A stretch of DNA of 53,586 nt, taken from assembly GCA_001724265.1 (NCBI GenBank), contig MEDY01000304.1:1-53586 (forward strand), read 5' to 3'. This stretch comes from Rhizaria sp. SCN 62-66 (taxonomy: Eukaryota). The notes beneath the pieces are model-generated. The model was given only the letters and a program-made list of their open reading frames with translations. It did not search any database and was not told where the DNA came from. Positions 5,351 through 52,900 of this stretch are shown here, one piece after another. The stretch's first letter is position 1. Each line of letters starts with the position of its first letter. The position numbers were made by a program, and so were the translations under genes.

Positions 5351-5394
<44 letters not shown>

Positions 5395-6007: not shown

Positions 6008-6045
<38 letters not shown>

Positions 6046-6230
6046 TCCAGCAGCCCGCGCTGGCGTCGGCGCCCGCGCAGTACGAGCTGCCGCCGGCGCT
6101 GGCGCAGCTGGTGCGCATGCCTGCGCCCTACGGCTCCAGCAACAACGGCGACGACGACAACCCGTACGACGGCTACGGCGGGTTCCGGAGCAGCGGCCCA
6201 TCTGGGGCACCGCAGGTTCCGCGCTTCTAA
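1524..6230 (+). CDS. Hypothetical low-complexity protein (1568 aa; Pro/Ala/Ser/Gln-rich, short Cys cluster, coiled coil)
   Basis: Long ORF from ATG to TAA, bounded by AT-richer spacers. No recognisable globular domain. Confidence 0.75.
2514..2624 (+). repeat. Coding tandem repeat, 27-nt unit x4 (HR[AP]LPHTPP)
   Basis: Translation HRPLPHTPP HRALPHTPP HRALPHTPP HRALPHTPP H, with synonymous differences between units. Confidence 0.9.
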
Positions 6231-28536: not shown

Positions 28537-31500
28537 TCAGTCGGCTTGCTGATCGAACAGTGACATGAGCCCAGCACCGCCCGCCTTGCGTAGCGGCAGA
28601 GTGCTCACCGGTTTGTTTTCGATCGAGGTCGGGCTCTTAGGCTGCAGATGCTGGGCCATCGCGGCGATGGACGCTGCCGCGCTCGAGCCGGCCAGCACAC
28701 GCACAGAAGGAGCGACGGTGCCGTCGCTCGCGACCACTTGCTGCTGCTGCAACAACTGCTGCTGCAGCGCTAGAGCTGACGTGAGCGTCGATGCCGAGAC
28801 AGCCGGGCCCACGTGCACCATTGCACCGTCCTCCACAACCGCAGCAACGGGATTGGTGAACATCGTGCGGTTGCTATTGACGGGCGAGTGAATCGGCGAG
28901 AGGCAGCTCAGCGGGTGGCCGCGGCGAGACTTGAGGTTGTAGGCGCTCTTGCCCGACTGCGCGTCCAGATTGACAATGAGAACAGTGATGTTGTCGGTGG
29001 AGCCCAGCCGGATCGCGCGCAGCGCCAGCTGCTCCGCGAGCCAGCTCCAGTCCGTCTCGTTCGGGTCGTCCCCGACCGACGCCGTCGACGACGACGACGC
29101 GGCACCAGCGCCAGCGCTCGTCCCAGCCACATCACTGTCTTTGCTGATTTGCGCAGCAGCGTTGCCGACAGCGGCGGCGGTGACGGCGTCCAGGTCCTCC
29201 AGCTCGATGCCCGTGCCTGCCTCGGAGTCTGAGCTCGAGCTCGAGTCCAGCACCAGCGACGAGAACCGGCCTCCGGGCGTCGTGCTTTGGCCCAGCTGCC
29301 CCGGCTGCGCCGTCGCTGCAACGCTGGTCGTCGCGGCCACGGTTTGGCGGCGCACCCTGGCCTTGCCGACGCCGGGCCTGCCGCTGCCCAGCGTCGTCCA
29401 CGAGCTCGCCTCGGCTGCTGCGGCGGCGGCCTCTGCCTCCGCGGCCTCTGCCTCGGCGTCGAGCGCCATGTCGCTGGCGGCGACCGAGGCCGCGACCGAG
29501 GCGGCGTCGTCGCCCGCGGCGGCGGTGAGCGCGTCGGGGACGCCGTAGAGGCGCGTGAAGCGCTCCTTGCCGATGCGGAGCAGGCGCAGCGCGTAGTCGC
29601 AGGCCTCCTGGTGGCTCATGACGTCCCAGAGCCCGTCGCAGGCGAGGATGAGGAACTGGTCCTCGTCCTCGAGCGCGACGACCTGCGTGTCGGGCACGGC
29701 AATGAGTCCGCTGGGCGCGCCGCCGGTGAACTCGGCGTCCTTGTACAGCACGTCACCCAGCGCGCGCGTGACGGCGATGGAGAAGCACGACGGCGTGTAG
29801 CGCGGGTGGCCCAGGCGGCCCTTGTAGGTCCGCGCGCCGCAGGCCTCGAGGCGCGCGCGCTCGGCGGGGTTGCGCAGCGTGTGCGGCACCGAGAGCGCGA
29901 CCGCACGGCCGGCGCGACACAGCACGCCCTCGCTGTCGCCAATGTTGCTCACGATGAGGTGGTTGTCGTGCAGCAGCGCGACCAGCGCCGTGGTGCCGCC
30001 GTCCAGGTCCAGCGCGCGCGCTAGCCCACACCACTCGCGCTCGAGCGTGGCGAAGGACTCGTGCAGCGCCGACACGACGTCCGAATTAAACGCGGGGTGC
30101 TTGAACAGGTAGTGCGCGATGCGGTCCGACACGTAGTCGGCGCACTCCGTCCCGCCGTGCCCGTCGCACACGCAGAAGAAGCCAGAGAGGTTGACCGCGC
30201 CGCCCGCGGTGCCCGACGCCGCGCCCGACGCGGCCGTCGCCGCGCCCGACGCGGCCGTCGCCGCTGCCGAGCCCGTGGCGGCGGTGCTAGTGGGCGAGGG
30301 CAGCGATGGCACGCCCGACGCAACGCTGCACGCGTCGCAGTTGAGCCCCAGCCCTGGCTGACCGAGGCCGTGGGCCTGCAAGCGCGCGTGCGCGTGGAGC
30401 GGGCAGGGCGCAGGACTGGGGCTGGGGCTGGCGCCGGGCAGCGGGCTCGCGCCGACGGTGACGCTGCTATTGTTCATGCCGCTGGCGCCGCCCATGCCGC
30501 TGGCGCCGCCCGCGCCGGCAAAGGCGAGCGCCGAGGGCGAGCGCGTCGACTGCGCCGACTGCAGCGCGGGCGACGCCGCGGCCTCGGCACCGTCGGCCAG
30601 CGACGCACTGGCGCTCGCCGCCGTCCCTGCGGGCGCCAGTGCCTGCGAGAAGGACGCCGCGCTGGGCGGCAGCCGGCCGAGGCCCGCGCCGCCCTGGCTC
30701 GAGCCGCCAACAGCAGCAGCGGAGGCTGCAGCGGCCGCGGCAGCAGCGGCAGCAGCGGCAGCGGCGGCTGATGAGCCGCCAACCACGCTGTTGCGCGCCG
30801 ACGCGTGCCTATAGCGCCCGTGTCCGTGGCCCGCGCCGCCGCCGCCGCCGCCGCTGCCCGCGATGGCGAGCGCGCGGGCGAAGGTGCGCGGCGTGGCCAG
30901 GATGGGCGCGTCCACGTCCACCTCGCCTGCGGTGCTCAGGCCAGCGCTCAGGCCAAAGCTCGCAGCAGCGCCGGCAGGAGTGCTCGCACCGGCGGCGGCG
31001 CCAGCGGAGGCGGTGACGCCCGTGAGCGGCGTGGGGGCGCGCGGCGGCGGCAGCAACGCGTGCGACTGCGAGAAGCTGGAGTTGGCGCTGTTAGCCGCAG
31101 TCGAGGACGCCGACACACTACTGTTGGCGTTGGCATTGCTGCTGTTGCTGTTAAAACCGCCGAAGTTGCAGACGCCGCTGAAGCTCTTGCGGCCGCGCGA
31201 GCCCGCCGCGGCGGCGGCCGCTGCGGCTGCAGCCGCCACGGCCGAGGCCGGCGCGGGCGCGGGCGCGGGCGCAGGGGAGGGCGAGGCAGAGCCTGCCGCA
31301 GAGGCGAGCGTCGAGGTCGAGCCCGAGGCGGAGGCCGAGGCGCCGAAGGTCGGGTACGGCAGCGGCGACGGCGACGGCGAGGGCGCCATGAAGACCTGCT
31401 GCAGCGCGCTCTGCAGCAACGCGCTCTTCTGCGGCTGTTGCGACTTGTTCTGCGCCTGTGTCTGCGTCAGCGCCTGCGCTTGCGCTTGGGCGCGGAGCCC

Positions 31501-34500
31501 GCGGCGCAGCGCGGCGACGGGCGTCACGGCGCTCGACGACGGCTCGGGCTCGGGCCCGCTGTCCGCCTCCGTCCTGGCGTCCAGGTCGGCAGCAGCGTCC
31601 ACGCCCGCGCCTCTGGCCTGCTGCTGCTGCTGCTGCAGGTCGAGACCCCAGAGCGAGGCCAGCGGCGACATCCCGCCGCGCGCGCCTACACCCGCCCCAG
31701 CGGCAGCAGTCATACCGCCAGCAGCGCTCATACCGCCAGCAGCGCCGGCAGCAGCGGCGCCGGCGGCAGTGATGCTGGGGTTCGAGACGGCGCGCGCGGG
31801 CGGCGCGGGGGCCGCGGCGACAGCGACGGCGGGCGCGGCCCTGCTGCTGGCCCTGAAGCGGCCCGCGCCCGCCGCGGCCGCTGCGGCCGCGGCGACGATG
31901 GCCGAGTCCGTGTCGGTGTCGGCGACCGAGTGCGCGGCCGAATAGGCGGCGACTGAGTGCGCGGCCGAGGACGCAGCGTCGGGCTCGGAGCCCGTCGCGC
32001 CGCCGGGGCCCGCGGCCTCGCTGTCAGCCTCGCTCGCGGCCGCGCGCGCCGCGCGGCACGACTGCAAGTACTTGGCGAAGTCGAGGTTCTCGTTCTCGCT
32101 TTCGCCGTGGCCGTGGCCGTGGCCGTGGCCGTGGCCGTGGCCGTGGCGGGGGTCGGGGCCGTCCGCGTCGCTGTCGCTGCCGCCGTTGCCGTCACTGTCG
32201 CTGCCGCCGCCATCGCCGTCGCCGTCGTGCAGGCGCGGGTCCTGGCGCCGCGGCTGCTGCGGCCGGCCCGGGCCGCCGCCCGCGGAGCCGGTCGTGCCCG
32301 TGGTCGTCGCCGCGCGCAGCCCCCGCATCGGCGCGGCGCCAGCGCTCGGGCCGGTGCCGGCGCCGGCGCCGGCGCCGGGGCCGGGGCCCTGGAGCGCATT
32401 GCCACGGCCCACGCCGGGCGGGCTACTGCCGCCACCGAAGCCGTAGCTGTAGCCGTTGCTGGCGGTCGGCGTCGGCGCGCCGGCCTCGGCCCCAGAGCCC
32501 CCTGCTGCTCCCGCGGCGGCTGCGGCTGCGGCGACAGCGCGGAGGCTGCTGTCGCCCGCGGCGGCTGCGGCGGCGAGCCCTGTGCCGAGCCCCAGCCCCA
32601 GGCCGCGGACCCAGCGGCCCTGCGACAGGCTCGCGCTCAGAGATGTCGAGCTGAGAGACGTCGCGCTGAGCGAGGCCGCGCTGAGCCCGGAGCTGGACAG
32701 GGGGGTGGCCGGGCTCGCGTGACCCGCGCCCGCGCCCGCGCCCGGGCCGCCGCTGCTACCGAAGCTGCTGCCGCTGGCGCTGGCGCTGTTGACAATAGCA
32801 GCGCCCGCCGCCGCGTCAGAGGCGCCGCCACCGAACAGACTGGCGAGGCTGTTGTTCATGTTGTTCGCGCCGGTGACGCCGCTGCCGAGGCCGCGGCCCG
32901 CCGCCGCTGCCGCCGCCGCCGCCGAAGCCGAGGCCGAGGACGAGGTCTTAAACGTGCAGAGCGGCGACCCGCCGGCCCAGTTGTTGCCGGGCGCCGCAGC
33001 CGGGCCGCCGGTGGTGCTAACGCTCAGCGCGGAGACCGGGACGGGGGCCGGGCTCTGCAAACTGCTCGCCACGCCGCCCTGCTGCTGTTGCTGCTGCTGC
33101 TTGGAGCCGATCTGCTTGGCGAGGCCCAGTCTACCCTGCTGCTTCGGCAGCCCGTGTCCCTGCCCCTGCGCCAGTGTCTGCCCCTGTCCGCCCGCGGCTG
33201 CGGCGGCTGCGGCTGCGGCGGGTTCGGTGTCCTGGAGCCGCGCCTGGGGCCTGATGCAGGGCAGCGCGCGGTGCGCGTCTTCCATGGTCCCGCGGCGGCC
33301 CTGGAGCGCGAAGACGCCGAACTGCGCGCGGCCCAGCCGCCGCAGGTGCGCGCTGTGAGGGTGCGAAGCCCACGCGCGCGCCACCGCGCCCGCGTTGCCG
33401 CCGGAGCCGGCGTTGCCAGAGCCAGAGGCAGAGCCCTGCTGCGCGGACGCCGACGTGGACGCCAGAGCCGGGGCCGGAGCCGGGGAGGGCGCTGGGGAGG
33501 GCGACGGCGACGGCGAGAGCGCGGGCGACAGACAGTGCGACTGCGACAGCGAGTGCGCGTGCGACTGCGCGGCGCAGGGCCCGTCCGCGCAGTGGCTGTG
33601 CGCGGGGTGGCCGTGCGCGCACACGAGCCCGAGCCCGCGCGACGGCGGCCGCGACAGACCCAGGCCCAGGCCCAGGCCCGGGCCCGGTCCGGTCGCAGCC
33701 GCTGCCGCTGCCGCAGCGGCGCCGGTGGCGGCGGGCGCTGGCGCGGCGACGGACGGGGTGAACGCTGCCGTGACGCCAGCGGGGGCCGTGGGGGCCGTGG
33801 TCATGGTGGGGGCCGCGGACGAGGGCCGGACAGCCGTCGCGCCCGCGCCGCTGGAGCCCGTGAACCCAGCGCCATTGGTGTAGGCGCCACCGCCGCCGCT
33901 GCCGTGGGCGGCGCGCGCGTGGGCGTGGGCAGTCATCGCCGCGGTGGGCGTGGCGGCCACGGGCATCGCAGGCCGGGCCACGAGGCTCACGCCAGGGACG
34001 GCGCTGCCGGTGCCGTTGGCGCTACTGGCGGAGGTGGCAGCGGTCGTCGCGGCGGCGGCGGCGGCCGCTCTCGGGCCGAAGCCTCCCGACGCAGCGGCGG
34101 CCGCAGCGGGCCCCGAGGCCGGCGCGTGCGGCGCGTGGGGGCCGTGGGGTGACAGCTGCGAGAGCGTCTGCGAAAGCGTCTGCGAGAGAGAGGACGGGGA
34201 TAGCGGCGCCAGCAGCGGCGGCGGCGGCGGGCCCGCTGGCGGGTGGGGCACCACGAGCACGCTGCTCGCGCCGCTGCTGCTCGTGGCGCCGGCGCCCGCG
34301 CCCGCGCCGCTGCTGACGCTCGTGGTCAGCGGGAAGTTGGCGTAGGTGAAGGTGGCGCTGGCTGCCTTGGGGCTGCTCGCGCGGAACCCAGACACGCTCA
34401 GCGCGGGCGCGGGCGCGGGCGTCGGGTTTGGGGTGGGCGCAGCGCCCGGCGCGCTGAGCGCGGACGTCGAGCCCGCGGCGCTAAGCGCAGGCGTAGGCGC

Positions 34501-36003
34501 ACTCGCGGCGCTGGCGGCGTTCGCAGCGCCGGGACCGGCCTGCGGCTGCGGCTGCGCTAGGGTGACGGCGTGGTTGGCCGCGCTGGAGCTGGTCCGCGAG
34601 CTCGAGTTGGAGCTGGTGGCAGAGCCAGAGTTGCCGCTGCTGCCGCTGCTGCTGCTGTGGCCGCTCGTGCTGCGGCGCGCCTGCGCGATTGCGGCTGCAA
34701 GCGACGCGGGCGAAAACGGTGAGCCGGGACCCGTTCCAGCGCCAGCGCCAGCGCCGGTGCCCGAGCTGGTGCCGGCGTCAGCGCTCGCGATTCTAGCGCT
34801 GCCGGAGGCGCCGGCAATGCCGAGCGTGGCAGCAGCGGCGCTGAAGCCGCCGCCGGCCATGATGGCTCGTCCGAGCGGCACGCTGCCGCCTGCGCCCGTG
34901 TGGCCCACCCCCGTGGCGCTGGTGCTGCTGGTGCTGGTGCTGGTGCTGGTGCTGGTGCTGGTGCTGGTGCTGGTGCTGGTGCTGTTGAGGTGGCTTGTGG
35001 CGGCGGGCGGGCTGGCGCTGTGTGCGCGCAGCGGCGCCCGGGGGCTGGCGCTAGAGCTTACGCCGCCGCCGCCGCCGCCGCTGCTGCCGCCGCCGCCGCC
35101 GCTGCCGCCGCCGCCGCCGCTGGCGCTGCTGCCATTGGTGCTGGTGACCGAGGCCGCGGCCGAGGGGGAGCGCGCGAGCAGCGCGGGCAGCAGCGGGCCG
35201 TGCTGCGGGGGCTGCTGCTGCTGCTGCTGTTGGTGGGTCTGGGTCTGATGCACGTGGGCGTGCTGCTGGGTGGGCGACAGCGGCGACAGCGGCAGCGGCA
35301 GCGGCGGCGAGAGCGCCGCCAGCGGCGACGCGCGGCCGCCCAGCAGCCCCAGGCTCGCTCCCGCCGCCGCCGTGGCCGCGTAAGAAGGCGAAAGCGAGCG
35401 CTGCAGACCCAGACTCAGACGGAGGCCAGGCCCCGCAGGCTGCTGCTGCTGTGCGCCGCCCTCGTAGCCGTAGCCGTAGCCATAGCCATACGCATGACTA
35501 CTACTGCTGCAGCTGCTGGGGCCGGAGCTGTTTTCGCGGTAGAGCGCGGGAGGCAGCGCGGCCGAGGACGAAGACGCGGGCGAAAGTGCCGCGGCGTGGG
35601 TCAGGCCTCCGTAGGCGGCAGCGGTGGCGACGGCGGGCAGTGGCGGCGCGGGCGCGGGCGCGTGGACCGAAGACATCAACATCAAGTGGGGGGCCGGAAT
35701 GGGGGCCGGGGCGGAGCCGGAGAACGAGACGGGGGCCGGGGCGAGGGCAAGAGGGCGGGACGCAAGGCTACCAGTGTGCGAGGCAGTCGCGGCCGCGGCT
35801 CTGGAGGGCCCCGTGTCGGCGAAGCTGTCCCTGACGTCGCCAGGCCCCCTGCCGTCGGCCACCGCGGCCGAGGAGACTTTGGGGGCGCAGAACATGACGC
35901 TCGCGGGGGCGTTGGTGAAGGAAAAGGAGCTAAGCAGGTCCACAAGTTGACAAAAGTTGAGCAAGGTGGGGTTGTGAAGAGGTTTACATACGGTGACAAA
36001 CAT
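28537..36003 (-). CDS. Giant PPM/PP2C Ser/Thr phosphatase (up to 2488 aa) with very large low-complexity insertions
   Basis: PP2C motifs in canonical order: QGRRGTMEDAH, FCVCDGHGG, GGTTA, NIGDS, AVTRALGD, FLILACDGLWDV, GSTDNITV. The start may instead be ATG 35895 (MFCAPK). Confidence 0.9.
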   Translation of the reverse strand: MFVTVCKPLHNPTLLNFCQLVDLLSSFSFTNAPASVMFCAPKVSSAAVADGRGPGDVRDSFADTGPSRAAAATASHTGSLASRPLALAPAPVSFSGSAPAPIPAPHLMLMSSVHAPAPAPPLPAVATAAAYGGLTHAAALSPASSSSAALPPALYRENSSGPSSCSSSSHAYGYGYGYGYEGGAQQQQPAGPGLRLSLGLQRSLSPSYAATAAAGASLGLLGGRASPLAALSPPLPLPLSPLSPTQQHAHVHQTQTHQQQQQQQPPQHGPLLPALLARSPSAAASVTSTNGSSASGGGGGSGGGGGSSGGGGGGVSSSASPRAPLRAHSASPPAATSHLNSTSTSTSTSTSTSTSTSTSSTSATGVGHTGAGGSVPLGRAIMAGGGFSAAAATLGIAGASGSARIASADAGTSSGTGAGAGAGTGPGSPFSPASLAAAIAQARRSTSGHSSSSGSSGNSGSATSSNSSSRTSSSAANHAVTLAQPQPQAGPGAANAASAASAPTPALSAAGSTSALSAPGAAPTPNPTPAPAPALSVSGFRASSPKAASATFTYANFPLTTSVSSGAGAGAGATSSSGASSVLVVPHPPAGPPPPPLLAPLSPSSLSQTLSQTLSQLSPHGPHAPHAPASGPAAAAAASGGFGPRAAAAAAATTAATSASSANGTGSAVPGVSLVARPAMPVAATPTAAMTAHAHARAAHGSGGGGAYTNGAGFTGSSGAGATAVRPSSAAPTMTTAPTAPAGVTAAFTPSVAAPAPAATGAAAAAAAAATGPGPGLGLGLGLSRPPSRGLGLVCAHGHPAHSHCADGPCAAQSHAHSLSQSHCLSPALSPSPSPSPAPSPAPAPALASTSASAQQGSASGSGNAGSGGNAGAVARAWASHPHSAHLRRLGRAQFGVFALQGRRGTMEDAHRALPCIRPQARLQDTEPAAAAAAAAAGGQGQTLAQGQGHGLPKQQGRLGLAKQIGSKQQQQQQQGGVASSLQSPAPVPVSALSVSTTGGPAAAPGNNWAGGSPLCTFKTSSSASASAAAAAAAAGRGLGSGVTGANNMNNSLASLFGGGASDAAAGAAIVNSASASGSSFGSSGGPGAGAGAGHASPATPLSSSGLSAASLSATSLSSTSLSASLSQGRWVRGLGLGLGTGLAAAAAAGDSSLRAVAAAAAAAGAAGGSGAEAGAPTPTASNGYSYGFGGGSSPPGVGRGNALQGPGPGAGAGAGTGPSAGAAPMRGLRAATTTGTTGSAGGGPGRPQQPRRQDPRLHDGDGDGGGSDSDGNGGSDSDADGPDPRHGHGHGHGHGHGHGESENENLDFAKYLQSCRAARAAASEADSEAAGPGGATGSEPDAASSAAHSVAAYSAAHSVADTDTDSAIVAAAAAAAAGAGRFRASSRAAPAVAVAAAPAPPARAVSNPSITAAGAAAAGAAGGMSAAGGMTAAAGAGVGARGGMSPLASLWGLDLQQQQQQARGAGVDAAADLDARTEADSGPEPEPSSSAVTPVAALRRGLRAQAQAQALTQTQAQNKSQQPQKSALLQSALQQVFMAPSPSPSPLPYPTFGASASASGSTSTLASAAGSASPSPAPAPAPAPASAVAAAAAAAAAAAGSRGRKSFSGVCNFGGFNSNSSNANANSSVSASSTAANSANSSFSQSHALLPPPRAPTPLTGVTASAGAAAGASTPAGAAASFGLSAGLSTAGEVDVDAPILATPRTFARALAIAGSGGGGGGAGHGHGRYRHASARNSVVGGSSAAAAAAAAAAAAAAASAAAVGGSSQGGAGLGRLPPSAASFSQALAPAGTAASASASLADGAEAAASPALQSAQSTRSPSALAFAGAGGASGMGGASGMNNSSVTVGASPLPGASPSPSPAPCPLHAHARLQAHGLGQPGLGLNCDACSVASGVPSLPSPTSTAATGSAAATAASGAATAASGAASGTAGGAVNLSGFFCVCDGHGGTECADYVSDRIAHYLFKHPAFNSDVVSALHESFATLEREWCGLARALDLDGGTTALVALLHDNHLIVSNIGDSEGVLCRAGRAVALSVPHTLRNPAERARLEACGARTYKGRLGHPRYTPSCFSIAVTRALGDVLYKDAEFTGGAPSGLIAVPDTQVVALEDEDQFLILACDGLWDVMSHQEACDYALRLLRIGKERFTRLYGVPDALTAAAGDDAASVAASVAASDMALDAEAEAAEAEAAAAAAEASSWTTLGSGRPGVGKARVRRQTVAATTSVAATAQPGQLGQSTTPGGRFSSLVLDSSSSSDSEAGTGIELEDLDAVTAAAVGNAAAQISKDSDVAGTSAGAGAASSSSTASVGDDPNETDWSWLAEQLALRAIRLGSTDNITVLIVNLDAQSGKSAYNLKSRRGHPLSCLSPIHSPVNSNRTMFTNPVAAVVEDGAMVHVGPAVSASTLTSALALQQQLLQQQQVVASDGTVAPSVRVLAGSSAAASIAAMAQHLQPKSPTSIENKPVSTLPLRKAGGAGLMSLFDQQAD

Positions 36004-37753
36004 GGCGTAGCTTGATAGGGACGAGAAGTCCTTCTAAACGAGGGAGACTTGAGGGAGCAGTGTCAAGGCAATAGGGCACGCTAGACATCACAAGCAGCGA
36101 TTCAATTCAATCATAAACACAAATAAGATTAAATGTTCCAACACATTTTCAAAACATTGTTTTACACAAGGACGGATGAGCGCAAACGCTGCGTCTGTTT
36201 GTTCCAGACGCTGCTCTTCTCGGTCAAGATCCTTCTCGCTGACTGTAGTGGAGAATGAAGAACTTGAGGCTAGAACGCTTTGACCGCGGCAAGGGTGTGG
36301 TGACGCTTTCTGATGAAGATCATACTGAATGCACAACATGGTCGAAACTTGATTTATTTAGTTTTGTTAGTTTAACTTCAATATCAGCTCGATATCATTT
36401 TGTCTCGCGACCATAATATCATTGATCAACCCTGGACTGCTTATAGTCCGCTTCATTCAGCACCACAGACGTTTAACATCCACACTCAATACAATGGCAG
36501 TGTTCACTAAGTACCTACAGTTGCATTAAAGCTCCACAATGCTCTTATCGCCGCTTCACTGCACGCAGCAGCGCACACTCTCCCCCCATCTATCCCAGCG
36601 CTGCACAGGCTCTGAGTGACAGCGCTCACTTGCGAGGCCCTACAGCGCGTGGCACACTCGCGCGCCCGATGTACCGCCTCATCAGCACTCACTGTCATAG
36701 CCCCATCTGCAGCCCACCAAGGGAGTCGCCGCGTCTCAGCCTGAGCCCGCAGTCGCACTACTTACAGTGGAATGATGAGTGCACAGAGTGGCAAGCAAGA
36801 GCAGGAACGGACGGCGAAGGAAGCCGAGTCCTGCAACAGGAGCAGCACAAACAAAGACATCGCACACAGGCAACAACATACAGCGATGGGCAGACGCGCG
36901 CGCCACCGTCTGTGGCGAGCACAGATGGAAGATTAGCTTGTCAGAAGCCTTCCATTGGCATGGGTGCTCGTAGCAGTCCCGGGCCATGTAAGCACATTTG
37001 CACACAGCAACACTGCCTCATCACATATCACACACACGTCTCGTATTCAGTTTGGCCATCAAAACACGCTCATGGCTCCATCAAGCTTCAGTGCAGGTAT
37101 ATGGAAGACGATTGGCCACCTTAGAGCGAACTTGGAACAACCATTTTGGCATGACGCCAAGCGTTACAGCCATCGTCAACAGGACTTTTAAAAGCAAAGA
37201 CGGTATGAAAAGTCAGTAACAGACCTCACCCGACCATTACACACTTGCTTGGGTCGGTCAGCATATGCAGGGACACAAATTCGATAGTTTGCCGACTGGT
37301 TGGCTGGCGAGCTCGGGGCCGAAAAAAGATTAAGTCCAGCCGGCGACCGGAGCAGCCCGGCTTAACTTCGAGCTATGCGCGGTCCCAGAGCCGACCCATC
37401 TTCGGCCGCCGCCTTGATTGTTCTCGCGTCGCGCCAGGTCTTAGTCTTGAGCTTTTGGAGTGGTATGCTAGAATAGTATTGATGTTTATCTCCTTGCTGT
37501 TAGGTATCATGTTGCTATGCGCGCTTTGTTTGCGTCATGGGAGGTGCTTGGGAGAGCTCGCTGTGCCCCCAGCCCCACAGCCCAAGTGCTAAGAGAGAGC
37601 CCAGGAACGCTCTTTCGACGCGGCCGCTCTTGTGCCCGCGGGCTTTGCGTGTTTTGTAATTTTGCGTGGTTGTAGTATCCGAGCTTCTCTCTCACATGCT
37701 TTCGTGTGTTCCCTTTTGTTTTTCGTTTCTGCCTTCGTACGCCCACAGACAGG

Positions 37754-38404
37754 ATGGCCATTCCCGTGAGCAAGCCTAAGATCGTCAAGAAGCACACCAA
37801 GGCGTTCCTCCGCCACGACGGTGACAAGTACAAGCGCATCGGCTGGGCCACCGTCAAGATCGGTTTCGGTACTGCCAAGGCTCACCGTCACCTTCTCCCC
37901 AACGGCCTCAAGGCGTTCAACATCAACAACGTCAGTGTACGTAGCGCTTCCCTTCCCATTCCTCACTTGCTCTACCCTCTCAGCTTTCTTATGCCCCATC
38001 CACACGACGCGCGCATCGCGTTTGAGGTCTGCGCACCCTTCTAAAGCAGTGCTACAACATAGCTCTGCTCTCGTCTGACGCTCCGTTTCCGCGTCGTCTG
38101 GCGTGCTTGTGTGTCGTTCATTTGCCCTGCCAACATTCTTTTCGACTTCATTAACATCTATTCTCACTTTTCCACTTTTGTTTTTCCTCGTTCTTCTTCT
38201 CTTGCCTCCCCGCACACCCTTGAACATCACCTCGCACCCGCACAGGACCTCAACATGCTCCTCCTCAACAACCGCGAGTACGCCGCCGTCATCAACCACA
38301 GCGTCTCTGCCCGCACCCGCAAGGAGATCGTCCAGCGCGCTGACCAGCTCGACATCCGCGTCATGAACCGCACTGCTCGCCTCCAGACTGCCGAGTCTCA
38401 GTAA
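37754..38404 (+). CDS. RPL32: 60S ribosomal protein eL32 (113 aa, ~20-aa internal deletion); exons 37754-37936 and 38246-38404
   Basis: KPKIVKKHTKAFLRH...KIGFG...HLLPNG...NNVS|DLNMLLLNNREYAAVINHSVSARTRKEIVQRADQLDIRVMN. Phase-0 intron GTACGT...CACAG. Confidence 0.93.
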
Positions 38405-39753
38405 GTTGCTTGCCCCCAATACACCATCTTGGCCTCCTAATTCAACCCCAGCTTCATGCTTTATTCATGTTTTCGCGATGCACTCGACATACTCTTGTCT
38501 TAATAATGTGAATTTTTGGATACTCTGACTGCAGCTGTCTCTCAAATTCATCGTAACTTTTTCGTTAGCATGTTATATCTCCTGAGCATGAGAGATTCAC
38601 CTTGCGCAATTGTCGTCCGCGTTGACTCTTGAGGCACCGTAGCGTCTTTCTGGTAGCATGGCTGTGACGCTATGCAATAAATGCTCCATCATGAGTTAGT
38701 GGATTTGCGTTTCGTGTATATTTGTGCTCATTTGATCGTCCTGTCACTCATTTCAGGCAGGATGCACTGAACGCAAGGTGGCCTTTCAGCGTGCTTAGAT
38801 GATGCAGTTATCTAGAACATACACAGAGCAGCAACACACGCAGGCATAATCTATCAGCTGAGTGTGGCATGACATCCATGCAGATAGCGACGACGGAGCA
38901 CAGTGCACAATCGCAGCGCCAACACGAGACTGCGGCAGCGCGGAGCGGCGTCGCTCCCTGCACCTTGCTGTCGCGCTGATCAAGAGATTGGGGGTGTTGC
39001 GTCGCATGAAGGGCCACAAAAATGCTGCCTTAGTGCAGACACCGACCTTGCACCTGCATTGGCAGCCACATTGTTGCAGATGGATGCGTTGTGCGCGTCA
39101 GCAAGAGCTCTAGACTGGCGCGTGCGGTCTTGCTGACAACCAATCCGACAGCAATAATGAGCGAACCCCAACGCAGCACGCTTACACAACATAACATATA
39201 CACTGCAAATATCATACACAGTGCGCGCAACTGACAGCAGCATGACTATGCGCATCAGAGGTGATGCGGGATGACGAGGAGGCAGCGTCATTCGGCACAG
39301 AGGTTCGATCAGAGCGACAACAGAGCTCTACAACGTAGTAATTTAGATTCTGATAATAAAACATCATATTTTATCTTAATCCACACGGCGCATTGCCAGT
39401 GACGGCTTTTTGTGAAGCGTATCTGAATTTTGTTGTCGCGTTCGTGCTCCTTCGAGGACCCGTTTTACTTGACTGTCATCTTGAGAAAGCCCCTCTATTC
39501 AAAGTGTGATATATTTGTTCACATTCGTAGAGAACTGATGCCACGCCGCACCCAGATATACAACTACTTAATTAACGCTTAATGTGTTTTGAATGGCGTG
39601 ATGGCGCTCGTTATGCTTCATATTTTATCTTTGCTTTACTCACCCGTTTCTCTGATGTCATACTATGATACACCCTTTCGTCAATCTACTTCGCCCTCTC
39701 TGCATCGCATCCCCACTCGCTCCTGCCTGGCCCTCTTTTGCGCACACCCAGCT

Positions 39754-42700
39754 ATGGGTTGCGGCGCGTCAACCGCGGCCCCACAGCCCCTGGGCGCCGC
39801 CTCGGCCGCGACTGCCCCCACCTCGGCTGCCGCTGACACAGCGCACGGCGCGGGCGCGGGCGGCACGCGCGCGGGACCCGGCGGCCACGACGACGGCGGC
39901 GACACCGACGCGGGCCCCGGTGGTCGCCGCGCGCGGCGTCCCGACCTGATCACCTCCGTCTCGATGGTACTGGAGGCCTACTTCAAGCCTTTGGCCGCGG
40001 ACGGCTCCGAGTACGATTCTGACTCGCACCTCCGCATCCCGCTCGCAAACTACCTCGCGTACGCCTTTCCGCGCGCCAAGGTCGAGTTCGAGTTCAAGCG
40101 CCTCAAAACGCACGAGTTCCGCGTGCGAGTGCGCTCGTTGAACGGGCGCGCGCTCAACGTCTCGCTCATCGACGAGGACGCGCCCGCCAACGTCGTGGCT
40201 TACGACCGCAACTTCGTCTTCGGCGTCGGTCACTCGTTGCGCGCGCTCGCCCGCCGCGGCGCGCACTGGACGCCCGACATCGCGCCCGCCGCACTGCTGC
40301 GCCTGTTTGTCGAGTCGGTGCGCCTGTGCCTACTGGGCGGGCTGGACGCGCCCGCGGTCGCGACGGCCGTCACGCACGCCGTCCACGGCGACGCCGCCGC
40401 GCTCGCGTCGCGCAAGGGCGTCTCCGGTGCCGGCGCCGGCGCGGGCTCCGGCCTTGCCTCAGTTAAAGGCAGCAGCAGCAGTAGCAGCAGCGGCCTTGCG
40501 TCGGGCAAGGGCGGCCTAACTTCCGGCAAGAGCGGCAGCGGCCTCAGCTCCACGACGGGCCTCGCCAGCACCGGGGGCACCAGCAGCACCAGCGCCGGAC
40601 TGGCCTCCTTCTCCGGCACCGCCGCCTTCGCCTCCGCGCTCTCTGCCGGCGGTTCTGGCGCTGGCGGCGGCGGCGGCGGCGGGGGCGAGGATTCGCCGAT
40701 GATCCGCGACCCGACTGTGAAGCGGCGCGCGCTGAAGGAGCGGCAGGACCGCGAGCGGCAGGACAAGGCGCTCGAGGAGGCCACGCCGCGCCGCCGCCTG
40801 CTGGCGCTGCTTGCGGCCGCGGGCTTTGCGGTCGAGGACAAGGGCGACAAGTTCCTCTCGCAGCTGCAGCGCGCGCTCGAGACGGTGCAGGACGCCGTGC
40901 TGTGCTACGCCTTCGGGCCCGGCGCGCACCCCGGGCCCGTCACGCTGCGCGCGCGCTACCCTGTGGCCGCCGCGGACGCCGAGGACGCCGCGCGCACCAA
41001 GGCCGCGCTGCGCGACGCCGCCGCGCGCGACGCCGCCGCGGCCGCCAAGCCCGGCGCCGGGCGCGCCCGCGAGAGGGACCCGGCCGAGGCGCCCTGGGTG
41101 CGCGGCAAGCCCGTGCTGCCGGCGGGCGTGTCCACCGCGCCCGGCGCCGGCGCGGCGACGGCCTCGGCGACGGCGGCCGCGGCGGCGACGGCGACCGTGG
41201 GCGTGATGGGCAAGCAGCGCGTGCTGGTGACGGCGGCCACGGCGCTGCCACCCGCGCTGCGCGGCGCCGTGCGCTACGCCGACGGCATCACACACCTACC
41301 CGCCGCGCCCATCCCCGGCGCGCCGCTGCCGCCACCCCCCGCGCCCGCGGCGGGCAAGCAGCCCGCCAAGCCCGCTGCGGCTGCCGCCAATGCCGCCTCA
41401 GCCGCCACTGCCTCAGGGCCTGAAAGCGACTCAGCAGCGGCGGCCGCTGCCGCTGCTGACGGAGAGACGCCCGCGTCCGAGGCCGAGCCCGAGGCCGACA
41501 CCGCGACCGCGACCGGCGACGCCGACTCTGCCGCGAGTCCCAGTGCCAGCGCCGCGTCGACGGCCGAGATCGCCGAGACGCCGCCGTGGTGGTTCGCCGT
41601 GGGCTCGCGCTCGCGCCCCTCGGCGACCGTGTCGGGCCGCGACCTGCTGGGCTGGTACCTCAGCTTCCTCGTCTGCGCTTCGGGCCACCTGCCCGTGCCC
41701 ACGCTACCGCAGGCGCTTTACGGCGCGCGCGCGGGCGACACGGTCGCGGCGGCCGCGCTCTTCCGCTTCCTGGCCACGGGCGACCGCGCGGCGCTGCGCC
41801 CCGACGCCGCACTCGCCGACACGGGCCTCTGCGGCGACGCGCCCCGTCGCGGCCCCAACGCCAGCGTCGACCCCGTCGCAGCGGCGGCTGCGCTGCGCGC
41901 ACTGCGGCTGCCGGGCGCGAAGCTGACCGCGCTGGCGACCACCTCGGCGCTCGTCGCGGACCAGAGCCCCGAGGCGCGCGCCGCCATTGCCGCGGCCGCC
42001 GCGCGCGCGGTGGCGCAGAGCTCGGGCGGCGCGGCGGGCACGTCCACGCGCAGCGGCGCGGGCGGCGGCAGCGTCGGCGCCGAGGGCTTCCGCGCCTTCT
42101 GGGCCGAGCTGCTATCGCACGTTGACGTGGGCAAGTGGAGCCCCGCGGCGCTGGAGTCGGCGCTGGGACTGAGTCCACGCGAGGGCTGGCGCGCGCTGCT
42201 GGCGCACTGGTCCTGGGTGGCCTACCACCACGCCTGCTGGCAGCACGAGGCGCTGGCCGCCGGCGACGAGGACCTGCACTGCACGCCCGAGGGCGCGGGT
42301 AACGCCTCGCTGGCCGCGGCCGCGGGCGGCGCCGGCGGGCCCGAGGCCGACCTGGCGGCCGTGGCGTCGGAGGCGTCGCTGGCTGCGCTGGCCGAGATGC
42401 TGGCCTTCAGCTCGACGCGCGAGCTGCGCGTGGCGGCCGAGGAGCTCTTCTCACACGACCGCCAGCGGCCCTACCTGCACACGCGCCTGCTGCACCTTGA
42501 CACCGCGCCGCACAACACCGACAACGGGCCCCTTGCCGCCGGGGCGGGCGCGCCTGCGAGTACTCCCAGCGCGCAGAGCTGCGGGCCCGTGGTGGCGCGC
42601 GAGCTGCGGCGCGACATGTTTCTGTGCTTCTTCGCGCTCAACTGCCGGCACCGCGCGGAGAACGTGCTCGTGGTGGCGCGCGACCTGCTGCATCTGTACG

Positions 42701-43182
42701 ACCTGCCCGGGCACCTCGCCACGGTGGCGCCGACGCTGCACACGCCGCGCACGCGCCGCGTGGCCGCGCTCTTCCGCCGCTTCGCCACACCGCCGCGCAC
42801 GACGCTGGGCGTCTCGCTGGCGGTGCCCTCGGCCGTGCCCAACCAGGTGGTGCCGCGCGCGACGCTTATCATGGAGACGGAGAAGTGCGTGCTCGGCCGC
42901 AAGCGTGCCATCGTGGCGCACGTGCACTCGGTCAAGCTCAAGCCTTCGGGCGCGATTGACACGGCCGGCGTGAGCGACGAGGAGGCCAGCGCCGAGGTCA
43001 AGGCCGCGCGCGCCGCGGTTGAGGCCGTGAAGCTGGACAAGACGGACCGCTCCGAGCGCGGCGAGATCCTCATCAATGCCGACGACTTCGCCAAGGCCAT
43101 GCGCCGCAGCGGCGTGCTTGAGAGCGGCGGCAGGGGCGTCGAGCGCTTCTGGTACCTCATGCTCGCAAAGTACTACTGCTGA
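39754..43182 (+). CDS. Hypothetical ~1140-aa protein with N-terminal dual-acylation motif MGCGAS
   Basis: Long ORF ending in TGA. ATG 39754 gives MGCGAST, a myristoylation/palmitoylation consensus. The upstream TTG extension in the ORF track looks non-coding. Confidence 0.75.
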   Translation: MGCGASTAAPQPLGAASAATAPTSAAADTAHGAGAGGTRAGPGGHDDGGDTDAGPGGRRARRPDLITSVSMVLEAYFKPLAADGSEYDSDSHLRIPLANYLAYAFPRAKVEFEFKRLKTHEFRVRVRSLNGRALNVSLIDEDAPANVVAYDRNFVFGVGHSLRALARRGAHWTPDIAPAALLRLFVESVRLCLLGGLDAPAVATAVTHAVHGDAAALASRKGVSGAGAGAGSGLASVKGSSSSSSSGLASGKGGLTSGKSGSGLSSTTGLASTGGTSSTSAGLASFSGTAAFASALSAGGSGAGGGGGGGGEDSPMIRDPTVKRRALKERQDRERQDKALEEATPRRRLLALLAAAGFAVEDKGDKFLSQLQRALETVQDAVLCYAFGPGAHPGPVTLRARYPVAAADAEDAARTKAALRDAAARDAAAAAKPGAGRARERDPAEAPWVRGKPVLPAGVSTAPGAGAATASATAAAAATATVGVMGKQRVLVTAATALPPALRGAVRYADGITHLPAAPIPGAPLPPPPAPAAGKQPAKPAAAAANAASAATASGPESDSAAAAAAAADGETPASEAEPEADTATATGDADSAASPSASAASTAEIAETPPWWFAVGSRSRPSATVSGRDLLGWYLSFLVCASGHLPVPTLPQALYGARAGDTVAAAALFRFLATGDRAALRPDAALADTGLCGDAPRRGPNASVDPVAAAAALRALRLPGAKLTALATTSALVADQSPEARAAIAAAAARAVAQSSGGAAGTSTRSGAGGGSVGAEGFRAFWAELLSHVDVGKWSPAALESALGLSPREGWRALLAHWSWVAYHHACWQHEALAAGDEDLHCTPEGAGNASLAAAAGGAGGPEADLAAVASEASLAALAEMLAFSSTRELRVAAEELFSHDRQRPYLHTRLLHLDTAPHNTDNGPLAAGAGAPASTPSAQSCGPVVARELRRDMFLCFFALNCRHRAENVLVVARDLLHLYDLPGHLATVAPTLHTPRTRRVAALFRRFATPPRTTLGVSLAVPSAVPNQVVPRATLIMETEKCVLGRKRAIVAHVHSVKLKPSGAIDTAGVSDEEASAEVKAARAAVEAVKLDKTDRSERGEILINADDFAKAMRRSGVLESGGRGVERFWYLMLAKYYC

Positions 43183-43942: not shown

Positions 43943-45610
43943 TTACTTCGCCTCAGCGTCCGCACCAGAGCCCGAGCTCGAGCTTGTGGGCGCGGCCGGG
44001 CACGGTAGTTGCACGTCGGCCTCCGCCGAGCCGCCGCTGCCGCTGCCCTGCGGCTGCGGCGGCTGCCTCTGCTGCTGCTGTTGCTGTTGTTGGCTGCGCT
44101 CGCGCTGCTGCTGCGTGACGACGCAGGCGGGCGGAACCGGCAGCGCGGGGTCGGCCCAGAGCCCCAGCGTGCGCAGCGTCGTCACCAGCGCGCCGACAAT
44201 GTCCGTGAAGTCGCCCGTGTTGCCCGCGCGCGCGCGGTCCATCGCGGCGCGCAGGCGCGGGAGCTGCTCGGGGACCACCTCGACCTCGACCTCGTGCGAG
44301 ACGGCGCGCTCCGAGGGCCGCGAGGCCGTGTAGGCCGTGACCGTGGTAAGGTCCACCGACCAAAGACCAGTGCGGTACGAGCGGCGCTCCTTCTCCCTGC
44401 GCAGAGCAAAGAAAAGAGCAGAGAAAAGTGCATTCGAGTCAATCGGACAACAGAGATGAGCCTTGGGTTGTAAACGAAGCATATTAACGAGCTATACAAT
44501 AATTTGAGAGGATATCGAGTAATATCACGGACTGCTATTCACGTAGCGCTCACACGCGCAAACGTACCTGGTCTCGATGGCCTCGGTGGGCGGCATGGGC
44601 ACCTTGTCCTCATAGCAGGCGCTGATGCGGAAGGTGACCTGCGCGCCGGGGCAGTAGAAGTCGACGTTGGCCAGCGCCGGCTTGCGTTTAATGATGCAGG
44701 CCAGCACGGCCCCCGTCGCGGGGTCGCGTGTCACGCGCACGCGCTCGCCGTTGACGTGATGGAACGTGTCCCTGCGCACGCACAAACGAACACGGCGACG
44801 CAGCAGCAGCGCAGCAGCGACACAGCAGCGACACAGCAGCGCAGCGAACACAGGAAGTGAGATGAAACAAGTGAGACACAGATAGAACAATCAAAGCATA
44901 ATATCAGACATGAAGAGATACACCGCAGCAACTCAGCAGCTCTGCAGCGACGTACTTGGTGACGGTCTTGGAGTACTCGACGGGCAGTCCCTGGCGCGTG
45001 ACGCGCGAGTGCTCGACGCGCCCGTTGAGCACCTTGGTCTGCAGGTGCGTGAACAGCGCCGGCGGCAGCGCCGACTCAAAGCGCCACGGCGGGCGCTGCT
45101 GCGGCGTGAGCGCGACAATAGAGCTGACGAGCGGCACCTCGAAGACGTTGCCGGCGCGGCCCTCGGCGGGGCGCAGGATGCCCAGCTTGCCCTCGATCTC
45201 GAGCCCCTCGGTGCGCTGCTGCACGAGTGGGGCCAGGAACTTGGCCACGCTGATCGCCAGCGGGTCGGTCATGTTCACGCACAGCTGCGGCCGCGGGACG
45301 GCACGAGTTGGAAACAAGGGAGCGCAAGGGTGTGTGTGCGCGTGAGCGTGACAGAGAGATCAAGATGCGGGAGTGTGCCAATGATTGATAGAGGGGTAGC
45401 AAGAGAGGATCGACGTTGTAAGCAAGCGTAGTACGAGCACGAGAACAAACATAACAATCTACGCAAAAATGCACATGGACACAAGGGCAGTTTGTAGCGA
45501 GTCTGCGAGGGCTTGGAGAGAGAGTGACATGAAGATGAAGCGCGCTAACGTACGATGTTGCTGAGGAGGTCTTGTTGGCCTCCACCAGAACCGCCACTAG
45601 GCGCAGACAT
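43943..45610 (-). CDS. CET1: Cet1-type mRNA 5'-triphosphatase (triphosphate tunnel metalloenzyme, 347 aa); exons 45610-45554, 45284-44956, 44771-44568, 44396-43943
   Basis: Three GTACGT...CAG introns splice in frame. TTM motifs LEIEGKLG, RVRVT, FRIS, RxKxRxSY (REKERRSY), VDLT and HEVEVE. Confidence 0.85.
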
Positions 45611-46972: not shown

Positions 46973-49900
46973 TTAGCCCCACTGCGAGTCGCCGTAGCTG
47001 TCGTAGCCGAACCCGCCAAACCCGCCATCGCCGCCGCCGCCAAAGGCGCTGAGCGCAGCTACCGCAGCAGCACCCTCGGCGTCGTCATCTTCGGCCTCTG
47101 CTGCTGCTGCTGCTGCTGCTGCTGCGGCGGCGGCCGTACGAGACTTTGTCTTGTTCTTGCGGGCGCTGGCAGCGGCTACGGCGGCGGTTGCGTCCACGAC
47201 AGGGGCCGCAGTTGCAGCCAGTGGTAGGGCTGTCGGAGCAGAAACGGCTACAGGGGCTGGTGCCGCGATGGCAGCGACAGCGGCGGCAGCGGCGGTGGTG
47301 GCGAAGGCTGCGACGGCGGGCGCGGCAGGCGCGACACGGATGGGCGCAGCAGACTTGGCGGCCTTCGCGCTGGCAGCACGCGCCGCTGCTGCCGCCGCCG
47401 CTGCGGCCTCCGCTGCGGCCTCCGCCGCCCTGGCCTTGGCCCTTTGCTGCGCAACAGCTGCGGCAGCCGCCTGCGCCTGCGCCTGTGCCTGTGCCCGCGC
47501 CTCCGCTTGCGCCCGCGCCTGCGCTTGCTGCGCCTGCGCCTCGGCCTCCGCCTGCGCCTGCGCCTCGGCCTCCGCCCGGGCCCCGGCTTCGGCCCGCGCG
47601 CGCGCCCGGTTGGCCTTGGCGCGGGCCCGGACCTCGGCCTCGGCGCGGGCCAGCGCGCCAGCCTCGGTCGCAGCCTTGGCGGCGGACTGGGTCTCCGCCT
47701 CGGCCTCGGCCTCCGCCTCGGCCTCAGCTTCCGCCTCGGCTTCGGCGGCCGCTGCCGCCGCTGCCGCCGCTGCCGCCGCTGCAGCCGCCGCAGCAGCCGC
47801 GGCCGCGGCGGTCGCTGCAGCCACGGAGCTCGCCGCTGAGTCCGCAGTGTCCCAGTCGTTGTGCAGCGCGCCCCCGGTGCCCAGGGCCACGGCGACGGCG
47901 CTTGCGTCGGCGTCAGCGCCAGCGCCAGATCCAACAGCAGCGTCGTCGGGCGCATCATCATCGGCAGCTGCAGCAGCGGTGGCGGTAGCGGCGGCGGCGC
48001 GCGCCTCGGCGCGGGCCTCCCGGGCCTCGCGCCTGCGCCGGAGAGGCGCCAGTGCTGGGGCTGAGGCCGGGCCTGTGTCTGCGTCAGACACAGTTACAGC
48101 AAGAGTCAGCTCGGGGGCCGGGACAGTGGCTTGCGCCGTTGCATTCGCAGCAGCTTCTGCAGCGGCAACAGCAGCTGCTGAAGTCTCAACCTCGGCCTCA
48201 GTCTTGGCGGCGACCTCGGCCCGGGCGGCAATGCGTGCCGCGCGTGCGGCGGCGCGTGCGGCCTTAGCCGCGGCGGCCTCGGCCCTGGCCGCGCTGTGGC
48301 CGAGGTCACCATGAGCAAGCGCGCCGTCGGAGTCGGCGTGGCTGGCCCAGTCCCACAGCACGCCCGCGGTAGCGTCGCCCGCAGCGCTCGCAGCAGCGCC
48401 GGCTTTGGCCCTGCTGCGGCTGCTCGTGCCCGTGCTCGTGTCGTTGCCGGCGAGCGACTTATCGTTACCATCGTCGTCGTCGTCGTCGCCGCTATCGGAG
48501 GTCGAGGGCGAGGGCTCAGGCAGCGTGACCGTGAGGGAGACTGGGGACAGAGACAGACGGGGCGCCGCATCAGCGTCGATGGCGCCAACATCCACAGTGA
48601 GAGCTGTCTTGTCACACACACTCGCATCCGCCGTTGCTGTCACAGTCGCTGCCGCTGCAGTCTTGGCCTCAGCGGCAGCCCTTTCGCGGCGCCGCTGCTG
48701 CCTGCGCTCAGCCTCAGCGGCCTTCGCTGCAACGCGGGCAGCTTTGGCGGCGGCTTTGGCGGCGGCATCGGCCTCTGCAGCGGCCGCGGCCTCGGCATCT
48801 GCATCAGAAGCGTCGCGCTGGGTGGCGGCGTCGGTGGTCGCGCCCGCGTCAGAATCAGACTGCAAATGCCCGCGCTCACGCTCGCTACTGCGAGCGCCAT
48901 CGTCGTCGCGGCTCTTGATTTGACTCTTGCCCTCGCTTGCATCGTTGTCCGAGTCCGAGTCGGAGTCCTTCATGACTGCGGCGCCCTCGACGACAACGAA
49001 GACGAGCGCGACGTTGGCGATGGCGTGAATCACTTCTTCGAAGAAGGCACGCACACTCACCAATCCGCCTCCGCCCACGCGAGCGCGCGGAGCGGTGACA
49101 GCCGTCGCCGGCGCCGCGGCAGCGCTCCCCGCAGCGCTGCCGCTGAGGTACGCGGGGCATGGCAGGGCGCGCGCAGTCGCGAGCGCGCGGCGGCGGCGGC
49201 GGCGCTGGCGGCGCAGCTTGAGCCGCAGCCGGTGGCGCTCGCGGTCGCTGCTGCACGCAGCCAGCGCCGCCGCGGTCGCCGCAGCCGCCGCGGGCAACGC
49301 CAACGACATCACGGAGGCAGCCGGGCTCGATGCAGCGCCGGCAGCAACGACAGCGTTAGTTGCTGACGCTGAAGCGGCGGCTGAGACTGACGAGGGCTGG
49401 CCGAGGACCCAGGTCTTGTAGAGCCAGCGCAGCGCGGGCACGGCGTTGTACAGCGCCAGCACAAAGCGCCGGTCCACGCGCACCTCGCAGTCCAGCGAGG
49501 GCTCCTCGTCTGCGGGCTCCTCTTCCTCCTCCCCGTCCTCGGACTCGGCGCCGTCGTCAGTGTCGCTGTCGTCGGCTGCGCTCCGACCGCCCTTCTTGGG
49601 TTTCGCCGGTTTCGCCTTCGCCCTGCTGGCTGGCGCGGTCACGAGCGCGGCCTCGGAGCACGCGGGGCTGAAGTCCCGCGGCGTCGTGCCGAAGGGCCGC
49701 GTCAGCAGCGGGCGCCGCAGATCCGCCGACGCCGCCAGCACATCCGTCGCGCCCGCGCCCGCGCCGACGCCGCGGTGCCTGGCCGCGGCGCTGGCCACGG
49801 GGCGCGGCGCTGCGGCCGTGGCCGTCGCGGCCGTGTCCGCACTCCTCCTCCCGGAGCCAGCACCAGCGCCGTCAGCGCCAGCGTCGGCGTCGGCGTCAGA

Positions 49901-52900
49901 CTCTGAGCCCGAGTCCCCGCCGCGGCTCATGCCGCCGTCGGCGTCCCTGTTGGCGCGCGCGAAGGCGGCCTCCGCGGCGACGGCGGCCCGCACGCGCGCC
50001 TGCTCCTCCTCGCGCGCGCGGCGGGCCAGAGCCAGGTGCAGGTCCGAGTTGCGGCGCAGCAGGCGGGCCACGCGCGCCGCAACTTGATTCGGGTCCCAGT
50101 ACAGGATGCACCCGACGGGCAGCCGCGGCTCCACCAGAGACACCAGGTCGAACCACAGGTCGGAGGTGAAGGCCTCGCCGCTGCCGGGGACGCCGCACAC
50201 CACGCCGGAGCCAGAGCTAGATCCGGTCGCAGCGGCCGAGCCGCCGTCGACGCCAGCGTCTGTCTCGGCGTCAGTGTCGTCATCGTGGCTTGAGACGGAG
50301 ACGTTGTCGGCGTCATCGTCATCGTCCTCGTACATCCACACGACTTCACCGTGCTTCTGCATCAGCGCCCGCTCACGGTCGCCCTGCGCTGCGCCGTCCC
50401 GCTGCGGTTCACCGAAGCAGGGCGCCGGCGCGGGCCCAAAGCCCGCACTGGCGCTGGCGCGGCCGCGGCGGCGGAGCGCGGCGGCCCACTGCCGCGGCAG
50501 CACCGCCACAGGCACCGACCGCGCCTGCTGTTGCAAGCCCGCGGCGGCAGCGGCTGCGGCGGCAGCGGCCGTACGCGCCGCCTCAGCCTCCGCGGCGGCG
50601 ACAGCAGCAGCGGCGGCGCGCGGCCCGTCGGCCCTATTGTCGCCGTCGCTGTCGTCGCTGCCAGCATCGTCATCGTCATTGTCGTCACTGTCGCCGTAGC
50701 CATAGGCGCCGTCACTGAGCCGCGCCAGCTGCGCTGCGGCCCGCGCGGCCGCGGCCGCCGCCTCAGCGTCGCGCGCGTCTGCAAGAGCGCGCGCAGCGGC
50801 ATCCGCCTCGGCCGCCTTGTCAGCCGCCAGCGCATCATAGATGATCTGCTCGGACAGCCACGGGCACAGCGCCAGACGGCGCCGCGCGCGCGCGGCGGCT
50901 GCAACGGCTTCGGCCTGGGCAGCGCGCGCGCGGGCCGCGGCGGCGACGGCGGCGCGCGCGGCGGGCGTGGCGGCCGCCAGCGACGCCTGCACCGATGTAT
51001 CAAGATCGTGGCCGTGACCAACAATCATGAGAGTTGCTGCTGACTTTCCGGCACCAGTACTGCTTGCGCTGGAGCTGCTGCTGCAGCGAGCAGGGGTGTT
51101 CGAGTCGGCAGATGGAGACAGGGCTTGGCGAGCGCGGGCCAGTGCGAGTGCCCGGACCCGCGCCTCAGACATCGAGCCGACCGCGCCGCTGTTCCCAGAG
51201 CTACTGCTGCCGACAGTGTTGTCAGCGGGTACAAGCACTGCGGTGTTGAGCTGCAACGGGCCCTGAAAGTGGGACGGTGCCAACCATAGCGGTGCTGCGC
51301 GGCCCGGGCTCGCAGCGGCCGCAGCGATTACGGCAGCCGTGGACATGAGCGTCGACCCGACTGTCTGACCGCGCGCACCCTGATCGTGCGCACCGGGGTG
51401 ACCGTGCGCAGGCAGGGCGAAGCGGTGGCGACTAAGCCCTGTGCCGTCGGTGACAGCCGTGAGCAGCGCTGCGGCCACAATCGCCGCCAGAGAAACCGAG
51501 AGCGTCAGGACACTGGTGTGCGGCGCCACGGTGTGAGCGCCATCGATGGCCGCGTGAGGCGGCGGGGACGGCGCGAGCAGAGGCGCGATTTGCGGCACGA
51601 GCAGCACCGCGACGCTTTCGGACAGCAGCGTGCGCGACAGCGCCAGCCCCAGCTCGCGCTCGCTCTCTGCGCCAGCCGTGCTCGTGCTTGCGGGGGCATG
51701 GGCGCCGGTTGTGGCGGTCGCGAGGAGCGCGGCGGCCTCCGCGCGCGCCCAGTGCCAGGCCGCCGCGGAGGGCACGGAGGCAAGCGCGGCGGTAAGCGCG
51801 GCGCGCCGCAGCCACGCCGCCGCTGCAGCGACCGCGGCCGCGTTTTCAGGGCCAGTGTCCGCGTGAGAAGCGCCATCGGCGTCAACGGTGTCAGTGTCGT
51901 CGATATTGCAGTTGTCGCTTTTGGCAGCGGCGTCCGCATCCACATTGGTGTCGTCGGCGTGCCCCGTGTTCGCGTCGTTCCCGTCGCTGTCGTCGTCACC
52001 GCTGCCCTTGTCATGGTGACCGCGAGCCGCAGAAATAGAGCCCACCAAGAGCCCGTGCGCGGCTGCAACCGCGCGCACCGCCACTGCGGACGACGCTGGA
52101 GCCGACGCCGGCTGCGAGCCTGCGCCGGCGCCACGAGTCGCCGTAGCGTCAGCGGCGGTGGCCGTGGAGGGTGGCAGCCGGACCTGCAGCGCGGCGGCAA
52201 GGTCTTGCGCCGTGCAGAGCGCCGCAGAGTCGCCACCGACGCGCCCGACAGCGTTGGGCGCGGCCACGGCCCTCGCGCCACCACCACTGGTGACAGCGGG
52301 CGCGCGCGTGGCAGCCACCGCCCTGTTCACGCTGCTGCTCGAACGGGCGCCAACTGCAGTGACAGCAGGCGCAGTGGCCGTGGGCGCCGAGTCGCGCGCG
52401 CGCAGGCCCCGCGCGGCGCCGACACCAGTGCCCGGGTCCAGGCAGCGGGCCAGCGCGCGCTGCTGCAGCTGCCGCAGCCACATCCGCGCGCGCGCACGCG
52501 TTTGCACCGCAGCTGCGGGACTACAGGTAGTTGCGCTCGACAAGGCAGCGGTGGGCGCTGCAACCGAAGCGGCTGCGATCGAGAGCATCGAGCGCAGAAG
52601 CGGGCCCCGCAGAGACATCACAGCTGCAACAGTACCCGAGCTCGCGTCAGAGCCGGATCCGTGGGCCGCGGGCGCAGCCGCGGCAGCGAGCATTGCAGCG
52701 CGCAGCAGCAGAGGCAGCGGCAGCAGTGGAGGCGCCGGCCCGGACGCCCGCGCCCCGGGAGCGGCCACTGCAGCAACTGCGGCTGCTGCTGCCTCTGCCG
52801 CGGCGGCGGCGCCTCGGTCCGCGACCGCGGCCATGACGCTCCGCGTCGGTAGTGGCAGCCCCGCGCCCGCGACGTACGCGCGCTCCCACGCAGCAGCGCG

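Follow-up and report, generated by a model that had tools for sequence, protein, structure and literature searches.

Does the ribosomal protein eL32 of this organism lack a conserved segment of its family, or is the segment missing only from the sequence in which the gene was found? The question arises from a window of 53,586 nucleotides (by the window we mean the whole stretch of DNA that was analysed), in which a two-exon eL32 gene lies on the + strand (37754-37936 and 38246-38404) and encodes a product of 113 aa. The features of the gene are as follows; L003 is a metagenome contig and X5 a sequencing run, both described below.

37754 to 37936, + strand: eL32 exon 1, 61 aa in the window and 85 aa in the full-length locus (from the translation and Pfam PF01655).
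37849 to 37850, + strand: junction of a window-private, in-frame gap of 72 nt, between whose sides L003 bases 1270-1341 fit.
37937 to 38245, + strand: eL32 intron of 309 nt, GT..AG, phase 0 (from a spliced X5 contig; identical in L003).
38246 to 38404, + strand: eL32 exon 2, 52 aa plus stop (from the translation and PF01655, 44 bits).

The translation of exon 1 (61 aa) includes ...RHDGDKYKRIGWATVKIGFGT..., in which RI is separated from IGFG by six residues. The conserved W-R-R-P-R-G-I-D...R-R-R-F-K segment, which is expected between KRIGWA and TVKIGFG, is absent from the eL32 of the window. This segment would contact rRNA, as the earlier note on this DNA also stated. Pfam PF01655 (Ribosomal_L32e, gathering score 25 bits) exceeded its gathering score in both exons, matching exon 1 with 30.6 bits at profile positions 39-66 and exon 2 with 44 bits at positions 68-108. 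When exon 1 was aligned with eL32 chains from the PDB, query residues 4-30 and 35-60 corresponded to chain residues 6-32 and 57-82, leaving about 20 chain residues without a counterpart. The absence of the basic segment claimed in the earlier note is real in the window, since the translation of exon 1 and the PDB and Pfam alignments agree on it; the coordinates, the intact frame and the normal downstream intron that it reported are also correct for the window as given.

The same locus is present in a JGI metagenome contig, L003, which by blastn is identical to window positions 36581-39818 over all 3,239 aligned bases. L003 bases 1-1269 correspond to window 36581-37849 (1269/1269 identical) and bases 1341-3327 to window 37849-39818 (1970/1970 aligned bases identical, with one 17-nt gap); the promoter region, the intron and the 3' flank are all identical. 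Two pieces of L003 are absent from the window, one of 72 nt (1270-1341) and one of 17 nt (about 2784-2800); these 72 + 17 bases are the only differences over 3.2 kb, with 0 substitutions. The 72 extra bases encode exactly the 24 residues that are missing from the window, and the placement of the junction is ambiguous by one base (C). The shorter gap has 3 nt of microhomology, lies about 300 nt upstream of the ORF starting at 39601, and is located as follows.

39291 to 39292, no strand assigned: second window-private gap, 17 nt (L003 about 2784-2800), intergenic (from blastn of L003 against the window).

A search for longer proteins with exon 1 as the query returned three proteins from 24 candidates. 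P0004 (137 aa, JGI and ENA, 5 contigs) is a spliced or intronless full-length product, equal to the spliced product of the window plus 24 residues, HKPTWRRPRGIDSRVRRRFKSNTR, between GWA and TVK. P0003 (120 aa, ENA, 5 contigs) is an unspliced, prokaryote-style read-through ORF; it contains the same 24 residues and ends in a tail identical to the translated intron of the window. Comparison with L003 and P0004 gives a gap of 72 nt, i.e. 24 aa, the absent residues being 33-56 of P0004. The earlier note had placed the gap correctly but underestimated its size at ~60 nt, and it was right that there is no intron at this point. An origin of the missing 72 nt in an intron or in alternative splicing was likewise rejected, as the piece is coding and lacks GT..AG ends.

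P0004 matched PF01655 with 131.5 bits over profile positions 1-108 of 108. Full coverage of the profile, including the basic segment W-R-x-P-[RK]-G-I-D ... R-R-[RK]-F-K, was not found in the window sequence as given, and was found in the L003 locus, in the paralogs L001 and L002 and in the RNA contigs described below. As the locus and its paralogs are full-length elsewhere, the failure to cover the full profile belongs to the record and not to the gene.

When JGI metagenome contigs were scanned with P0004, three loci were obtained (L001, L002 and L003). There are three eL32 copies, i.e. that of the window (37754-38404, with an intron), L001 644-1057 (complete, intronless) and L002 3-302 (partial, intronless). 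The flanks of L001 and L002 are unrelated, and on either side their similarity to the window stops 3 nt beyond the CDS. All three copies encode an identical full-length protein of 137 aa, and their nucleotide differences are all silent: with the copies labelled A to C, 9/9 differences between A and B are silent, and the 14 silent differences between A and C comprise 13 synonymous codon changes and a change of stop codon from TAA to TGA. L001 and L002 thus differ from the window locus in having no intron while making the same protein, and they provide the full-length copies for which the earlier note had advised a search. In runs X1, X3, X4 and X5 the flanks of L001 and L002 were also seen as loose ends, and their depth resembled that of the window locus (in X1 the three copies are of similar depth); the organism therefore probably has three eL32 genes making one protein.

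The full-length protein is that of an ordinary, plain member of the eL32 family. P0004 aligns end to end with solved eL32 chains (E about 1e-37), a family that includes 9v1i_lg, 4v3p_Lh and 22tu_Le; for 4v3p_Lh, residues 1-136 of P0004 align with chain residues 1-132 at E 1e-37, and 53 distinct PDB chains matched P0004 at E <= 1e-20. Compared with the solved chains, this lineage has a 4-residue insertion immediately preceding the conserved W (P0004 residues 29-32, window 37838-37849), opposite which both printed P0004 alignments have a gap in the chain. The insertion reads G-W-A-H here and S-W-N-T or S-W-D-R in relatives. Judged from these alignments, the insertion is the only genuine lineage trait seen. 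The earlier note had also drawn attention to a change from HQSD to HDGD. The change is present, but it is not exceptional: close relatives have HQGD, against the HQSD quoted for human and printed for the unlabelled chain 7oyc_e1, and the solved chains vary here too.

Three related proteins, P0005, P0006 and P0015, are 51-53% identical to the query (best local alignment), and the conserved segment is kept in 3/3 of them. P0015 (Logan, 92 aa) is a read-through ORF whose eL32 match ends where the window's intron lies, which suggests that the intron may be common to P0015 and the eL32 gene of the window. There may be a reason why such an intron has been kept. To see whether an intron-hosted snoRNA could account for the intron in this copy, 36000-40000 was scanned with Rfam. 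No family matched the window's intron; the sole match in that region was at chance level (E 0.36; 25 bits, with a gathering score of 86) and lay outside the gene.

Evidence on the locus in other samples came from the Logan contigs of runs X1, X3, X4 and X5, which belong to four studies. The stretch 37500-38500 was present in bioreactor, wastewater and sludge metagenome runs, and the best match was X1, a DNA run containing 0.94 of 92 sampled words. The Logan data are contigs, not raw reads, and contigs drop rare variants; among the 30 pieces listed, of 83 in the four runs, none bridged 37849 and 37850 as they are joined in the window.

In X5 the pieces on either side of the junction ran into the missing segment instead. 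Record 25 (depth 591) covers 37747-37849 and continues with 20 letters equal to L003 1270-1289, the start of the segment. In record 26 (depth 455), 49 letters precede 37849, of which the last 30, those shown, are the end of the segment; the record then covers 37849-37936 and is joined directly to 38246-38332 with 0 other letters between (GT..AG). The X5 depth of 508 in the bin 37840-37873 equals 590.6 x 10/34 + 454.7 x 25/34, i.e. the contributions of records 25 and 26. Only the exons are covered in this run and the depth is zero in the intron and upstream, so that X5 behaves as RNA here despite its label of 'probably DNA'. The intron-bearing eL32 paralog is transcribed and correctly spliced, and its RNA contains the segment. 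The X5 evidence consists of contigs, which give no expression level.

A contig of X4 runs 11 letters into the missing segment beyond 37849. Both X1 and X3 contain a 432-nt contig of this paralog, at depths of 36.5 and 6.8 respectively, which are the depths of the unique flanks; the contig matches the window at 37849 from its seventh letter, and its first six letters differ from the window. After these pieces had been accounted for, bin depths of 79.3 and 77.0 (X1) and of 19.8 and 19.2 (X3) were left over. These would fit one contig over 37799-37872 carrying the full-length form in two blocks, and such a contig would have to precede the X1 and X3 contigs whose first six letters differ; we did not count it as evidence. 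The earlier note had pointed to reads with the missing bases as the sign of an assembly error, and L003 and the contigs of the four runs do contain the 72 nt.

The short form itself was found nowhere else. The window's 96-aa read-through ORF had no match among about 15 billion proteins, and a search for proteins of near length gave 4 matches among 5 candidates, none of them short. Of 10 neighbouring window ORFs, the same protein collection has exact copies of 4, on 3-7 contigs; at 47,635 nt, the longest contig carrying these four is also the longest for P0003. Public contigs of 47.6 kb and 80.9 kb carry P0003 and P0004. The remaining 6/10 without an exact match may have different start calls or introns, and where cluster members were of unequal length their sequence was identical, with only the start or end differing. 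The other assemblies thus match the window in its neighbouring genes, and this gap is the one place where they differ from it. The 32-mer spanning the window junction had 0 exact matches in genome_contigs and viral_contigs, a result that would count against a real deletion; however, a 40-mer from the intron also had 0, and because these collections are without this organism the k-mer counts say nothing either way.

Very long uninterrupted ORFs (1,193-2,488 aa) lie in the window at 28537-36003 (-), 46973-53530 (-), 1524-6230 (+) and 39601-43182 (+); their content of Ala, Gly and Ser is extremely high, and simple repeats are numerous in them. The GC content is 72-79% in coding regions compared with about 52% between genes, and this pattern together with the long ORFs points to an intron-poor, GC-rich protist. 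The window also encodes elongation factor 1-gamma (18963-20042 (+), PF00647 plus GST domains). The ORF at 43943-44482 (-) weakly matches PF02940, the beta chain of the mRNA capping enzyme (25.9 bits).

The gap is present in the window, the locus is full-length elsewhere, spliced RNA carries the segment and full-length paralogs exist. The gap is probably an error of the assembly or of the source record and not a trait of the organism's ribosome; that it is an artefact, rather than a rare allele, is the part that we infer. On this reading the gene is an ordinary, expressed eL32 gene, of which a GC-rich, uncultured eukaryote of bioreactor and wastewater metagenomes has three copies. At this locus the organism has a real gene for a normal 137-aa eL32 including the conserved basic segment, and the window sequence would have lost 72 bases between 37849 and 37850 during assembly or record handling. 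An artefact is favoured because the gap was missing from all independent data, the main-depth path of X1 among them, and because two deletions with zero substitutions in 3.2 kb are unlike natural divergence; such a combination would not be the usual pattern in which natural strains diverge.

We looked for a mechanism of such an artefact at the junction and found none there: the microhomology is 1 nt, there is no flanking repeat, and the junction does not coincide with the ends of Logan contigs. A short-cut of the de Bruijn graph through a repeat was rejected, as the microhomology is only 1 nt. It also counts against an artefact that the gap is in frame and codon-aligned, as it would be in a tolerated real allele, and that the long ORFs of the window (up to 2,488 aa) are intact, which indicates that random deletions are not widespread in the assembly.

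A real, very recent deletion allele of one paralog, carried by the strain or sample behind the window, is unlikely, and it is as this minor alternative to an assembly or record artefact that the very recent deletion proposed in the earlier note survives. The allele would be tolerated, since two intronless paralogs still make identical full-length eL32, and the short protein made from it would most likely be null or assemble poorly. Besides this redundancy, the codon-aligned, in-frame position of the gap and the failure to identify an artefact mechanism are in its favour, as are the microhomologies of 1 nt (72-nt gap) and 3 nt (17-nt gap), which resemble those of end-joining or slippage deletions; the CDS outside the gap is unchanged, which fits a very recent event. 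However, among the pieces listed the gap was seen in 0 of 4 runs, and it occurred neither in the 3 JGI contigs nor in the protein calls of ENA, JGI and Logan; at the junction, the main-depth X1 contig for this paralog has the full-length form, and no substitutions accompany the gap over 3.2 kb. With 30 of 83 pieces listed, and with contigs dropping rare variants, a minor deletion allele could still exist in some sample. That some population of this eukaryote truly carries the 72-nt gap as a recent allele is rather improbable; such an allele would be a natural in-frame knockout, seen before further decay, that removes the rRNA-binding core from one of the three identical eL32 genes.

A remodelled ribosome of the lineage, or a specialised short eL32 paralog functional without the basic segment, both put forward in the earlier note, is refuted. 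In its favour the window offers nothing beyond an intact frame and a normal intron; against it, L003 and the spliced RNA contigs have this locus in full length, the three paralogs encode one 137-aa protein with silent differences alone (9/9 and 14), and P0005, P0006 and P0015 keep the segment. We conclude that the short eL32 does not reflect the organism's real biology.

Returning to an error of the assembly or source record as the preferred explanation, the locus carries a caution: a striking apparent loss of a universally conserved segment was explained in full once a second assembly and read-derived contigs were consulted. If the short form were the organism's only eL32, it would imply a remodelled 60S subunit; other forms exist. 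What remains, i.e. three eL32 genes that are identical at the protein level and of which one has an intron, is ordinary biology.
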